Source: an uncultured Gemmatimonadales bacterium
GTDB taxonomy: Bacteria > Gemmatimonadota > Gemmatimonadetes > Longimicrobiales > RSA9
Length of the DNA stretch: 64,000 bases
Direction of reading: 5' to 3'
Assembly (NCBI GenBank): GCA_963798085.1
Contig: CAWCRS010000005.1
Location: forward strand, 384,001 to 448,000
Shown here: one piece after another, positions 47,714 through 64,000 of the stretch
Numbering within the stretch: the stretch's first letter is position 1
How the letters are laid out: every line of letters begins with the position of its first letter
The notes under the pieces: generated by a model
What the model saw: only the letters and a program-made list of their open reading frames with translations
The model's database searches: none
Told to the model about the DNA's origin: nothing
Made by a program: the position numbers and the translations under genes

Positions 47714-52043
<4,330 letters not shown>

Positions 52044-52139
52044 CTTTTTTCAACCCTTCCGGCTATTGCCGTTGCAGCACTAACGCTGCGTTTGCGGGCC
52101 CAGTACGAAACAGAGACGTTTCCGGGGCATTGCCAGACC

Positions 52140-56377
<4,238 letters not shown>

Positions 56378-59779: not shown

Positions 59780-61063
59780 ACCGCGTTACTGGGGCTCGGG
59801 CTGGTTGCTGGGGAACTGCTGAACTGCCACCGCAAAACCAGCTCCTGCGCCCTTGCCCGTTGCCGCTTACAGCACCACCTCGGTCACGACGCCGGCGCCT
59901 ACCGTGCGGCCGCCCTCGCGGATCGCAAAGCGCAGCTCCTTCTCCATCGCGATCGGCATGATCAGCTCGATCTCCATCTGCACGTTGTCGCCCGGCATCA
60001 CCATCTCCACTCCCGCCGGCAGCTGCACCGCCCCCGTCACGTCCGTCGTCCGAAAATAGAACTGCGGCCGGTACCCATTGAAAAACGGCGTGTGCCGGCC
60101 CCCTTCTTCCTTCGTCAGCACGTACACTTCCGCCTTGAACTTCGTGTGCGGCGTGATCGATCCCGGCTTCGCCAGCACCATCCCCCGCTCGATCTCTTCC
60201 TTCCCCACCCCGCGCAGCAGCAGCCCCACATTGTCCCCCGCAAACCCCTCGTCCAGCAGCTTGCGGAACATCTCCACCCCCGTCACTACCGCCTTCTTCG
60301 CCGCCCCAAGCCCCACCATCTCCACCTCATCCCCCACCTTCACCTTCCCCCGCTCGATCCGACCCGTCGCCACCGTCCCACGACCCGTGATGCTGAACAC
60401 ATCCTCCACCGGCATCAGGAACGGCTTGTCCGTCTCCCGCACCGGCTCCGGGATATAGCTGTCAATCGCATCCATCAATTCCCCGATCTTCTTCCCCCAC
60501 TCGCTCTCCGGGTCCCCGCTCTCCAGCGCCTTCAGCGCGCTCCCCCGGATCACCGGCGTGTCGTCCCCCGGAAAATCGTACTCCGACAACAGCTCCCGTA
60601 CTTCCAGCTCCACCAGGTCGATCAGCTCCGGGTCGTCCACCGCATCGCACTTGTTCAGGTATACCACCACGTACGGCACATTCACCTGCCGCGCCAGCAG
60701 TATGTGCTCCCGCGTCTGCGGCATCGGCCCATCCGCCGCACTCACCACCAGTATCGCCCCGTCCATCTGCGCCGCACCCGTGATCATGTTCTTCACATAA
60801 TCCGCGTGCCCCGGACAGTCCACGTGCGCGTAGTGCCGGTGCACCGTCTGATACTCCACGTGCGCCGTCGCGATCGTGATCCCCCGCTCCCGCTCCTCCG
60901 GCGCCTTGTCAATGTTGTCGAACGACACAAAGTCCGCCAACCCCTTCTTCGACTGGATCAGCGTGATCGCCGCCGTCAACGTCGTCTTCCCGTGGTCCAC
61001 ATGCCCGATCGTCCCCACGTTCACGTGCGGCTTCGTCCGCTCAAACTTCGCCTTCGCCATGTC
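59780..61063. repeat. Copy 2 of the 1284-bp direct repeat (tuf plus 87 bp of 3' flank)
   Basis: Matches 42932-44215. Confidence 0.9.
59867..61060 (-). CDS. tuf: Elongation factor Tu (copy upstream of rpmG-secE-nusG)
   Basis: Same 397-aa protein as 43019-44212. Confidence 0.99.
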
Positions 61064-61351
61064 GCTCTCGGTTCGAGTTGGGAGGGTTTGCTGTACGTTG
61101 CGAGCTGGGCCGGTGCCCGGTTGCGTGTGCCGGGCGGAGCGTGGGTCCCGGGTCCTCGAGAAGAGGTCGCCGGGACGCATTCGGAGGGGGCATGAAAGAG
61201 AGCGGCGATCGCGCGCGTGTCCGCGCGCCCGCATCGCCGTTCCACGTCAGCCCGCCAGGCTCCGACCGGTCTGGTGGTTTGGCGCACGGCAGGCTGCCGC
61301 AAGGTGCTCCCACCAGACAGTCCCGGAGTACCGGTTCCGGGACAGACGAGC

Positions 61352-61380
61352 AAGATACCGGCAGGCCTCTTCAGTGTCAA
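61352..61380 (-). promoter_or_regulatory. Putative strong sigma70 promoter for tuf-rpmG-secE-nusG
   Basis: TTGACA-N17-TATCTT on the minus strand. Confidence 0.75.
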
Positions 61381-61561
61381 TCCTTCACGTCGACTCACCG
61401 CGGAGAGCGCTGGAGGGCGCGAAGCGGCCGGCTACAGGACTGGAGTTTCCGCGAATGCCTCGGGTGAATGAGGGGGTGATGGAGGTGAGGATCGGGTCTG
61501 CGCGTGCGCGCGCGCGATAACCTGCGGTGGCTGAGCAAGGCGTGGAGAAGCGGGCCGGGGG

Positions 61562-61570
61562 TGCTATTAT
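61562..61570 (+). promoter_or_regulatory. Putative extended -10 promoter for the hydrogenase small subunit-kinase unit
   Basis: TGcTATTAT ending 34 bp upstream of ATG 61604; GAGAGG Shine-Dalgarno at 61591-61596. Confidence 0.45.
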
Positions 61571-61603
61571 GGGCGCTGGCTCACCACATCGAGAGGCGGT
61601 GGC

Positions 61604-62644
61604 ATGCTCATGGGGTCCGCGCCGGGAGAAGCGGGTGGCGAAGGCGCCGCACCGATCGAGGCGATCTCGATTCTCTGGCTGACTGCGGGCCTGAGCTGCG
61701 ACGGGGACACGATCGCGCTGACCGGGGCCACGCAGCCGAGTATCGAGGACCTGATCTCGGGTGCGATACCCTGGACGCCGCGGGTCACGCTCTACAATCC
61801 CCTGCTGGCTCCCGAGACAGGCGACGACTTCCTGCAGTACTTCCATCGGGGCGCGGCCGGTTCGCTGGGGCCGTTCATCCTCGTAGTGGAAGGCTCGATC
61901 CCGGACGAGACGCTGAGCGGCGAGGGGTACTGGGCATCGTTCGGTACGGACCCGGAAACCAAACAGCCCATTACCACGTGCAGATGGATCGACAGGCTGG
62001 CGCCCAGGGCGTGGGCCGTCGTCGCCGCGGGAACGTGCGCGGCCTATGGCGGCATCCACGCCATGGCCGGCAACCCGACCGGTTGCATGGGGCTGCCCGA
62101 GTACCTGGGCTGGCAGTGGCGGTCCCATGCCAACGTACCGCTGGTCTGCATTCCGGGCTGCCCTGTGCAGCCGGACAACATGACCGAGACGCTGCTGTAC
62201 CTGCTCTATCAGGCCGCCGGTCGTGCGCCCGCGATCCCGCTCGACAATGCACTGCGGCCGCGCTGGCTGTTCCAGCAGACCGTGCACGAGGGCTGCGATC
62301 GCGGCGGTTACTATGAGCAGGGTGAGTTCGCGGACGCGTACGGCTCGCCACTCTGCATCGTGAAGCTGGGCTGCTGGGGTCCGGTCGTGCAGTGCAACGT
62401 GGGCAAGCGTGGCTGGATGGGCGGCGTAGGCGGCTGTCCGAATGTGGGCGGGATCTGCATTGGCTGCACCATGCCCGGGTTTCCGGACAAGTTCATGCCG
62501 TTCATGGATCAGCCGCCCGGCTCATTGCTCTCGTCCGCGGCGGTCTCGACATACGGACGCGCCGTGCATGCGCTCCGACGTTTCACGCAGGCGTCGCTCA
62601 ACAAGACACCGGTGCGGCACAAGCCCGGGCGTCCGTCTACCTGA
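61604..62644 (+). CDS. [NiFe]-hydrogenase small subunit, group 1h (HhyS)-like, no Tat signal
   Basis: ILWLTAGLSCDGD (CxxD), GTCAAYGGI, IPGCP, HEGCDR...C..KLGC, QCN...GGCPNVGGICIGCTMPGFPDKFMPF. Confidence 0.9.
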   Translation: MLMGSAPGEAGGEGAAPIEAISILWLTAGLSCDGDTIALTGATQPSIEDLISGAIPWTPRVTLYNPLLAPETGDDFLQYFHRGAAGSLGPFILVVEGSIPDETLSGEGYWASFGTDPETKQPITTCRWIDRLAPRAWAVVAAGTCAAYGGIHAMAGNPTGCMGLPEYLGWQWRSHANVPLVCIPGCPVQPDNMTETLLYLLYQAAGRAPAIPLDNALRPRWLFQQTVHEGCDRGGYYEQGEFADAYGSPLCIVKLGCWGPVVQCNVGKRGWMGGVGGCPNVGGICIGCTMPGFPDKFMPFMDQPPGSLLSSAAVSTYGRAVHALRRFTQASLNKTPVRHKPGRPST

Positions 62645-62649
62645 CTTCC

Positions 62650-64000
62650 ATGATGGCAGCGCACCAGCGCACGGAGAGCTTGCCACTCACGTCGCCGGAA
62701 GCGGAGACACTGCTTGCCGAGCTCGCGGGCGTATTCCTGCGCGAGCGCGGCCCGGGTGCCGCGGCCGTGGAGTCGGCGAACGGACAGTCGGAGGTTCCGC
62801 TCGTCGACCTCGATGCGCAGTACCGCACACTGGTCGAGCAGATTCCGGCCGTCGTGTTCATGGCCTATCTGGATCGTGGCATTGGTGAAGCGTACGTGAG
62901 TCCGCGCATCGAGGAGGCACTGGGCTTCTCGCAGGAGGAGTGGCTGGAGGATCCGGTGCGGTGGTACCGCCAGATCCATCCGGATGATCGCCAGCGCTGG
63001 AGTCTGGAAGCAGCCGAGATGTTTCTGACGGGCCGGCCGCTGCGCTCGGCCTATCGCGTGCTCTCGCGCGACGAGCGCGTGATCTGGTTCCAGTGCGAAG
63101 CCAAGATGGTGCGGCGGGAGGACGGCCGGCCGTGGTTCATCCACGGTGTGGGCGTCAATGTCACGGAGCTCAAGCATGGCGAGGCGGCGTTGCAGGCGGA
63201 GCGCAACCTCATGTCCGCCATTCTCGATACCGTGGGCGCACTGGTCATCGTGCTGGGACCGGGCGGTCGCATCATGCGGTTCAATCGCGCGTGCGAGGCG
63301 TTGAGCGGGTATCGGTCGGCCGAAGTGCAGGGCCGCTACCTGTGGGAGCTGTTTCAGAACGTGGAGGAAGCGGCACTCGTCCGCAGCGTGATCGAGAACC
63401 TGCGGCCCGGGGATGGTCGCAGCGTGTTCGAGGGTGCGTGGCAGACGCGTGACGCCGGGCAGTATCACATCGCGTGGTCCAGTATCGTGCTGCCGGCGAC
63501 GGCGACGGCGCCTTCGTGCATTGTCACCACGGGCATCAATGTAACCGAGCGGAAGCGCATGGAGAAGACCGTGCTCGAGATCAGCGCGCGCGAGCAGCGG
63601 CAGATCGCACAGGACCTGCACGACGGCCTGGGCCAGCACCTCACGGGCATTGCCTTCATGAGCAAGGTACTGCAGCAGGGGCTGGCGCGACGCTCGCCGG
63701 CGAGGGCGGCGGAAGCCACGAAGATCGTGCAGCTGGTCAACGAGGCGATCAACAAGACGCGCGAGCTGGCACGTGGCCTGCTTCCCGTGGTTTCCGATGC
63801 GGATGGCCTCATGTCCGCGCTGGCACGCTGGGCGCTGGAAGTGGAAGACCTGTTCGACGTCGCCTGCGCGTTCCACTGCCCCGAGCCGGTCCTGGTTGCG
63901 GATGTGAACGCGGCCACGCACCTGTACCTCATTGCGCACGAAGCCGTACACAACGCCATCAAGCACGGAAAGGCCCGCTGCGTCACGCTCTCGCTGACCA
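62650..64000 (+). CDS. Cytoplasmic PAS-PAS sensor histidine kinase, HisKA_3 (NarX/UhpB-type) family; runs off the window edge
   Basis: Manual translation, absent from the ORF track because no stop falls inside the window. PAS1 YRTLVEQIPAVVF...IHPDDR; PAS2 ILDTVGALVIV...FNRACEALSGY; H-box EQRQIAQDLHDGLGQ; N-box EAVHNAIKHG; no TM helix seen. Confidence 0.92.
   Translation, partial: MMAAHQRTESLPLTSPEAETLLAELAGVFLRERGPGAAAVESANGQSEVPLVDLDAQYRTLVEQIPAVVFMAYLDRGIGEAYVSPRIEEALGFSQEEWLEDPVRWYRQIHPDDRQRWSLEAAEMFLTGRPLRSAYRVLSRDERVIWFQCEAKMVRREDGRPWFIHGVGVNVTELKHGEAALQAERNLMSAILDTVGALVIVLGPGGRIMRFNRACEALSGYRSAEVQGRYLWELFQNVEEAALVRSVIENLRPGDGRSVFEGAWQTRDAGQYHIAWSSIVLPATATAPSCIVTTGINVTERKRMEKTVLEISAREQRQIAQDLHDGLGQHLTGIAFMSKVLQQGLARRSPARAAEATKIVQLVNEAINKTRELARGLLPVVSDADGLMSALARWALEVEDLFDVACAFHCPEPVLVADVNAATHLYLIAHEAVHNAIKHGKARCVTLSLT

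Follow-up and report, generated by a model that had tools for sequence, protein, structure and literature searches.

Why would a hydrogenase small subunit be encoded directly in front of a histidine kinase? The question is raised by a gene near the end of a 64,000-nucleotide stretch of DNA from an uncultured Gemmatimonadales bacterium (hereafter the window; contig CAWCRS010000005.1, positions 384,001 to 448,000), which encodes, at 61604..62644 on the forward strand, a 346-residue paralog of the small subunit found in group 1h NiFe hydrogenases that we refer to as HhyS'. A first-pass annotation, made from the window alone, had proposed that HhyS' and the kinase form a candidate new system for sensing H2 or redox state. 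Based on our analysis, the HhyS' locus is real and conserved and not an artefact, and HhyS' appears to be an intact, separately evolving copy of the small subunit that we propose, with roughly even confidence, as the input of a two-component switch controlling the adjacent hhySL genes.

The annotation had described an intact gene with a CxxD proximal motif and ligands for three Fe-S clusters, and this description held up. The open reading frame (ORF) yields the Pfam domains Oxidored_q6 and NiFe_hyd_SSU_C. Compared with the PDB, it is closest to HofK, a small subunit of group 1h (5aa5_A, E 6e-160), with the next-best hit far behind at E 2e-39. The proximal motif is present as C32-D33-G34-D35, and all ligand residues are in place, namely C32, D35, C145 and C186; H228, C231, C251 and C257; and C264, C278, C285 and C288, a division into individual clusters that we assume. 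These ligand columns are invariant in 40/40 HhyS' and in 68/68 ordinary copies, with position 35 occupied by D or E. No twin-arginine motif was found in the HhyS' N-terminus, as the annotation had also noted, although this does not set HhyS' apart, because the ordinary hhyS of the locus has none either. A difference is seen at the C-terminus, where the tail L[TN][TS]G[YFAH] (LTTGY) is absent from HhyS' here and from all 41 kinase-adjacent copies of our first set (0/41), compared to its presence in 67/69 hhyL-adjacent copies. Loss of the tail had to be abandoned as an absolute marker of HhyS', as kinase-adjacent copies found later (in loci L104, L106, L141 and L176) retain it.

The surroundings of the gene also agree with what the annotation had read in the window, and with much of what it had expected past position 64000. 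The kinase starts with an ATG at 62650, 5 bp after the HhyS' stop codon, and extends to the end of the window and beyond it on the same strand (62650..64000; complete at G000:C5:446650-448200, 516 residues). Described in the annotation as a soluble two-PAS kinase, it has an N-terminal helix, a first PAS domain (PAS-A, matching PAS_3, at about residues 56-176, 62815..63177), a second PAS domain (PAS-B) and HisKA_3, followed past the window end by HATPase_c; its H-box (DLHD), N-box and G-boxes are intact. The predicted NarL/LuxR-type regulator is indeed there (REC plus GerE, C5:448197-448886, forward strand, with motifs VDDH, LDI and GYIMK), and its start overlaps the kinase stop by 4 nt (GTGA). 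The pair has two features of a NarL-type system, a HisKA_3 plus HATPase kinase with intact boxes and a translationally coupled REC-LuxR regulator with its phospho-acceptor Asp. After a spacing of 531 bp follow an ordinary hhyS, about 70% identical to HhyS' (C5:449418-450479, forward strand, the two starts 3.8 kb apart), and hhyL (C5:450533-452323, forward strand), and then genes for a NifU-like protein, DUF5947, DUF6084, a conserved hypothetical protein, a HycI protease, YceI, hypC, hypD, an hypE-like gene, hypA and hypB. HhyS' therefore heads a three-gene block that precedes a normal group 1h operon. The statement that no large subunit is adjacent is correct in that the next gene is the kinase, and hhyL has an hhyS of its own, but hhyL starts only 3.9 kb past the HhyS' stop, with kinase, regulator and second hhyS in between. 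On the other side, tuf is divergent, as reported. The promoter suggested for the HhyS'-kinase-regulator unit does exist as a candidate sigma70-type site (TGGAGA-16-TATTAT, 61543..61570, forward strand), but as a consensus match only, at 9/12 positions, and it is weak evidence: two such sites were found, the second of which faces tuf, against 0.4 +/- 0.6 in shuffled sequences.

The conservation of this arrangement, and the separate evolution of HhyS', could be judged from 114 small subunits extracted from 78 genome loci, from locus L001 and from the loci of a search among relatives; three matches were dropped due to frameshifts or stops, and split genes, such as the HhyS' of L044, were left unextracted. 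The gene following the small subunit is a kinase in 41 cases and hhyL in 69, while two copies lie at a contig end and two are of distant types, and the order HhyS', kinase, regulator, hhyS, hhyL recurs across the extracted loci. That kinase-adjacent copies would form their own clade had been suggested, and was borne out by the small-subunit tree: a branch with support of 97 in the Shimodaira-Hasegawa-like approximate likelihood-ratio test (SH-aLRT) holds 40/41 of them, along with both copies from contig ends and a single copy that has a large subunit to itself, and the remaining kinase-adjacent copy (L050) falls just outside. In a 22-row subset (10 versus 12 rows), the split between kinase-linked and ordinary copies received 100/96 support, and forcing the two hhyS copies of the window's genome together was rejected by the approximately unbiased (AU) test (p-AU 9e-11). 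The ratio of nonsynonymous to synonymous substitution rates (dN/dS) is 0.01-0.10 in 8/8 HhyS' pairs, close to that of the ordinary copy, and judging from these values HhyS' is under purifying selection. Within-group identity is lower for HhyS' than for HhyS (80% vs 86%). Among the 30 genomes with both copies, 14 substitutions are fixed between HhyS' and HhyS, and of the 319 core columns 135 are invariant, with the same residue in either copy. At residues 300-339 HhyS' is the better conserved of the two (0.28/0.37 vs 0.75/0.64 bits), a pattern that suggests a new binding surface. A312 and A322 (HhyS numbering) are wholly or almost fixed in HhyS', whether or not it has a large subunit of its own. 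Next to these differences we note that the small subunit at L076 547-1629, from Granulicella and adjacent to hhyL, combines HhyS'-type residues N-terminally with an ordinary tail, and may be a recombinant of both copies.

If HhyS' does have a partner, the constant element in its neighbourhood would be the most obvious candidate. The annotation had pointed to the HisKA_3 kinase; the core behind PAS-A is of HisKA_3, HisKA or HisKA_2 class, and it is PAS-A with the N-terminal helix that stays with HhyS' through these switches. PAS-A is common to all 39 other extracted kinases, with a median identity of 77% vs 48% for PAS-B, a count which is partly circular because those kinases (L004 not among them) were picked by similarity and by a PAS-A motif. 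Judging from these comparisons, the defining partner of HhyS' is the N-terminal helix plus first PAS domain, and not the HisKA_3 core. The reverse search, which is free of this circularity, gave a consistent picture. In 401 Acidobacteriota genomes, PAS-A (E 1e-30 or better) was found in 12, all of them within the 18 that have a 1h-type small subunit (at least 62% identity), and in none of the other 383; since only 8 candidates per genome were scored, some PAS-A misses are possible, and one genome, G367, counts in the denominator alone. Eleven of the 13 PAS-A matches lie directly behind HhyS', and the remaining two sit before regulator and hhySL in genomes where HhyS' is elsewhere. One of these, G705, has a HhyS'-type gene without PAS-A kinase nearby (L118, G705:C10), its kinase and regulator preceding hhySL on another contig. 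From these neighbourhoods, HhyS'-kinase adjacency is conserved across several phyla, as the annotation had anticipated. In the host phylum, PAS-A occurs in 5/301 genomes, in four behind HhyS' and in one at a contig end; of 60 relatives searched, three yielded an ordinary small subunit of the 1h type (63-64% identity), with no second close copy in any of the 60, so that the cassette is patchy in this group. The nearest HhyS' (83%) and the nearest HhyL (91%) both come from another Gemmatimonadales locus (L041).

Physical fusion of the two partners was also encountered. A search for longer proteins gave 60 matches, mostly joined to PF00374 or to unrelated domains, of which 7 were inspected, and a clean fusion of HhyS', linker, helix, PAS-A, HisKA_2 and HATPase was found in two proteins, P0001 (ENA) and its cluster member P0061 (JGI). 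Among the candidates that we discarded, P0040, P0041 and P0044 result from reading through a frameshift, the PAS domain of P0016 is another one, the hydrogenase parts of P0005 and P0007 are of the ordinary type, and an in-frame read-through in L004 is an indel artefact. In P0007, which stands on a single contig, a 1h small subunit of the ordinary type is joined to a GGDEF domain; this may be an artefact or reflect another signalling use. Structure prediction was of limited help: the AlphaFold model of HhyS' alone has a mean predicted local distance difference test score (pLDDT) of 60.5, with residues 206-328 under 50, and its "C-terminal helix" is weakly modelled because the C-terminal half is poor. 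The PAS-A model (pLDDT 84.8) matched PAS/LOV folds of a generic kind (15-24% identity) and gave no hint of a cofactor, and the complex prediction for HhyS' with the kinase N-terminal helix and PAS-A (alignments A1 and A2) gave 0.00 in two runs and is counted neither way.

What the switch would act upon is suggested by the DNA in front of the ordinary operon. Counts of k-mers upstream of the ordinary hhyS revealed a palindrome with consensus ATCRGGGAWTCCCYGAT, the core of which is present no more than 500 bp upstream of hhySL in 30/33 loci with the same regulator type, versus 1/26 without an upstream regulator, 0/7 with a divergent regulator, and 1/6 among loci too short to judge; it was also present in 7/7 loci held out from motif discovery. 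In 23/30 loci the palindrome is followed by TTG at +57 to +59, a spacing that would fit an activator site ahead of a -35 element. With a weight matrix, 3/26 regulator-less loci score above 14 bits. Here, two operator-like sites lie on the forward strand between regulator and ordinary hhyS, at C5:448937-448953 (17.7 bits) and C5:449251-449267 (14.6 bits). No operator-like site of at least 13 bits was found within 400 bp upstream of any of 41 HhyS' genes, and autoregulation through this palindrome was rejected on that account. A wider regulon was likewise dropped, as the best matches in the genome, C10:23126 (25.1 bits) and C3:43918 (21.0 bits), have unrelated genes as neighbours and fall within intergenic DNA or close to it; they are possibly further targets or sites of another LuxR regulator. 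Loci with the divergent NarL-type regulator (about 31% identity) carry another palindrome, TACGTA-N-GT-N-TACG, in 4/7 cases (L042, L043, L045 and L053).

As for the origin of the pairing, complete hydrogenases coupled to the same kinase were found in metagenomes. Scanning with a divergent PAS-A alignment returned 80 loci, some on near-duplicate contigs, 66 of which hold group 1h cluster genes. In these 66, the gene directly upstream of the kinase is a small subunit in 14 and a large subunit in 11, and in 41 the kinase has another place within the cluster or close to it; among the 14 loci lacking such cluster genes, 9 have less than 700 bp upstream and 5 have room. In quick tree searches without bootstrap, a small-subunit branch (SH-aLRT 93) gathers 27/27 small subunits followed by the kinase, 7/7 followed by large subunit and kinase (S'L' copies), both fusion proteins and 0/24 ordinary copies; in the unrooted large-subunit tree, a branch (SH-aLRT 97) holds 9/9 large subunits next to the kinase, 9/9 from kinase-containing clusters, and that of L141, which lies beside a HhyS'-kinase pair. 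The HhyL of the window's genome is outside that branch. One Binataceae locus (L052) has the S'L'-kinase set plus an ordinary hhySL. Because this S'L' clade is kinase-linked and its large subunits, as far as the sequences cover them, retain both motifs for nickel binding, a whole hydrogenase coupled to this kinase was likely the starting point of the lineage, and the simplest reading would be that this sub-lineage of group 1h lost its own large subunit in cassettes like the one described here.

Taken together, these comparisons are best read as a sensory branch within group 1h that converges with group 2b and where HhyL is likely borrowed by HhyS'. HhyS', which lacks a large subunit of its own, would take as its partner some of the HhyL that the neighbouring gene supplies; H2 oxidation would then alter the redox state of the three Fe-S clusters in HhyS', the conserved C-terminal segment would relay this change to PAS-A of the kinase, and the regulator would bind the palindrome upstream of hhySL. 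We infer that the system senses H2 or redox state, yet not all parts of this proposal are equally secure. Control of hhySL by the regulator is very probable, and HhyS' is probably the input of the kinase; that the signal is H2 read through borrowed HhyL we consider evenly balanced. The broader proposition, namely that group 1h holds its own sensory branch independent of group 2b, a hydrogenase lineage tied to one PAS domain, reduced in Acidobacteriota and here to a small subunit whose large subunit is borrowed from the working enzyme, and serving as a high-affinity H2 sensor that sets hydrogenase expression via a defined operator, is tentative, and we put it a little short of even.

Several observations weigh against our best reading. 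For residues 40-79, a segment that we take to face the large subunit, conservation is lower in HhyS' than in HhyS (0.61/0.95 vs 0.17/0.47 bits), and W56 and F66 occur in 38 and 40 of 63 stand-alone HhyS' and in 0/7 S'L' copies, which may indicate a changed or lost contact with HhyL. Direct adjacency of HhyS' and kinase is not obligatory, because the divergent PAS-A kinase often follows hypB or a protease gene (the 41/66 hydrogenase-linked metagenome loci mentioned above) and because in G705 and G480 the PAS-A kinase and regulator stand ahead of hhySL, with HhyS' elsewhere. The two operator-like sites here are not the best of the genome, which has 49 strand-hits above 13 bits, and the second has its TTG at +44 and not at +58. 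Most loci belong to related Acidobacteriota, hence locus counts are not independent. From the literature, Giguere et al. detected expression of the hhyS homolog in only one of two strains (PMC8027828), and atmospheric H2 is constant, on which basis Lenz argues that expression of Huc in M. smegmatis is substrate-independent (PMC13289019).

The last argument is also part of the case for our main rival explanation, in which HhyS', without large subunit, would be a stand-alone Fe-S sensor of redox state or O2, or exchange electrons with the working enzyme and so read its redox state, and would inform the same kinase and regulator, in control of hhySL, that energy or oxygen is limiting. Carbon limitation induces hhySL in acidobacterial strains with the extra copy (PMC8027828), and such a sensor would also account for the lack of a dedicated large subunit, for the relaxed segment with its W56/F66 in stand-alone copies only, for the direct fusion to the kinase in P0001 and P0061, and for a genome (G065) with HhyS' and no hhyL match, even though this metagenome-assembled genome may be incomplete. 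Yet both copies share the invariant columns, without the loss of any large block, a large subunit is retained between HhyS' and kinase in sister lineages, and hhyL was found, besides this genome, in 9/10 further genomes tested that have a HhyS'-type gene. Unpaired small subunits would, moreover, be expected to be unstable. We regard this explanation as possible but unlikely.

Alternatively, HhyS' could be swapped into the working enzyme as a second small subunit, conferring another oligomeric state or electron acceptor, and be merely co-transcribed with a two-component system whose PAS domains sense another signal. Its identity to HhyS with all ligands kept, and the loss of the LTTGY tail, which could alter assembly, are compatible with this, and there are hydrogenase clusters where the PAS-A kinase has no small subunit right beside it. 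It is harder to reconcile with the fusion of PAS-A to HhyS' in two proteins, with the persistence of PAS-A behind HhyS' while the kinase core changes class, and with the absence of the operator upstream of the HhyS' genes, unlike hhySL, and we find it quite improbable. Lower still we rank a maturation or assembly checkpoint, where HhyS' would bind free nickel-loaded HhyL and report the mature large subunit to the kinase without sensing H2. Such a role requires contact with HhyL and with the kinase and nothing more, and PAS-A kinases are often found right after hypA or hypB, but the invariance of the medial and distal cluster ligands in 40/40 HhyS' exceeds the need of pure binding, making this a slim prospect. 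Finally, a recent, decaying local duplicate standing before the kinase by chance, which proximity to the ordinary copy and faster divergence could have suggested, is refuted by the dN/dS and AU results and is hardly compatible with an adjacency conserved across several phyla.

Of the findings that the annotation had named as telling against it, a sole hhyS, nesting among ordinary small subunits and an unconserved adjacency were not what we observed, but a nearby hhyL was. Its description of the system as a candidate new one had to be qualified. Giguere et al. reported an extra hhyS about 3,600 bp upstream of the structural genes in Acidobacteriaceae bacterium KBS 83, Edaphobacter aggregans and Pyrinomonas methylaliphatogenes (PMC8027828), which from its position, at a distance similar to the 3.8 kb between starts seen here, is very likely the same element as HhyS'. 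The element is therefore not unseen, because the copy is already in print for Acidobacteria; it is mentioned in passing, however, and the cassette is uncharacterised. The words "kinase" and "regulator" do not occur in the main text of that paper, and its passages on the extra copy name no function. The available part of Eichorst et al. (PMC5900883) describes the hydrogenase operon without an extra hhyS. We found no characterisation of the HhyS'-kinase cassette, and no mention of the operator, the constant PAS-A or the S'L' lineage, in a literature search mostly judged from listings, with subscription papers and supplements largely outside it.

The closest known design is that of group 2b, under which alone kinase-linked NiFe sensing is given in the portion of the HydDB paper available (PMC5037454). 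In HoxBC-HoxJ-HoxA of Cupriavidus necator and in HupUV-HupT-HupR, hydrogenase subunits, a histidine kinase and a response regulator control uptake-hydrogenase genes (PMC10073562, PMC6978683, PMC12319191), as may be the case here. The system described here differs in its group 1h ancestry, in having no dedicated large subunit at the locus, in its operator, and in its HisKA_3 kinase (HisKA or HisKA_2 in relatives) with a LuxR-type regulator in contrast to the sigma54-linked HoxA (PMC10073562). The search of the genome with HhyS' gave no group 2-type sensory small and large subunits encoded together, and the kinase and regulator of the locus are not of the HoxJ/HupT and HoxA/HupR types. With regard to the kinases, this contrast presumes the class to which we assign HoxJ. 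By analogy, the system likely works like group 2b in design, convergently and not as a member. With HofK/HofG of C. necator (PDB 5aa5) and with HhySL, HhyS' shares the CxxD proximal motif and the ligand set; it differs in being followed by a kinase instead of hhyL and in the absence of the LTTGY tail in most copies. DosR is a NarL-type regulator, and DosS and DosT are HisKA_3 kinases. DosST/DosR of Mycobacterium smegmatis, too, is a two-component system modulating group 1h genes (PMC13098282), but a global O2/redox system, whereas the pair described here is dedicated to the hydrogenase and coupled to a hydrogenase subunit gene.

A few other features of this genome deserve mention. A search with HhyS' returned the two copies on C5, one distant membrane-type small subunit on C7 and nothing else, and hhyL is present in one copy. 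The C7 gene belongs to a second, membrane-type group 1 hydrogenase (L002, G000:C7:968000-980000), whose genes, from the look of their sequences, we take to include a twin-arginine-like small subunit, a cytochrome b-like protein, a protease and hyp genes, adjoining a molybdopterin oxidoreductase-like gene. Four kb after hypB, at G000:C5:466204-467046, lies a gene for a membrane protein with a His-rich loop and a HATDPDH motif, presumably a transporter of the nickel/cobalt type. The rpoC and rpoB genes (window 47714-56352) are broken into several ORFs, and hypD/hypE and the genes that follow (L001 13327-16500) shift frame, which points to assembly indel errors and not to pseudogenes; the frames of HhyS', kinase, regulator, hhyS and hhyL are all unbroken. 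Genes for tRNA, or fusA, are often located upstream of tuf. No tRNA gene was found between 55000 and 64000, and the start of the hydrogenase block directly upstream of tuf (61061-61604) may mark a site of insertion or rearrangement.

Soil microbes with high-affinity hydrogenases take up about 70 million tonnes of H2 per year, and the enzymes behind this sink of atmospheric H2 in soil belong mainly to group 1h. According to two papers from 2026 (PMC13289019 and, in its available part, PMC13098282), the signals and regulators of these hydrogenases are still to be identified. The cassette offers a candidate sensor, a kinase, a regulator and an operator in a locus type that is likely shared with cultured Acidobacteria, and with its parts so named the question of regulation becomes directly testable. 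If the signal is H2, kinase-linked NiFe sensors would have arisen a second time, independently. The cassette would then be relevant to the response of the soil sink to rising H2, and it could provide a more sensitive part for H2 biosensors. Some of the group 1h genes that are counted as markers of H2 uptake may, moreover, be sensory.

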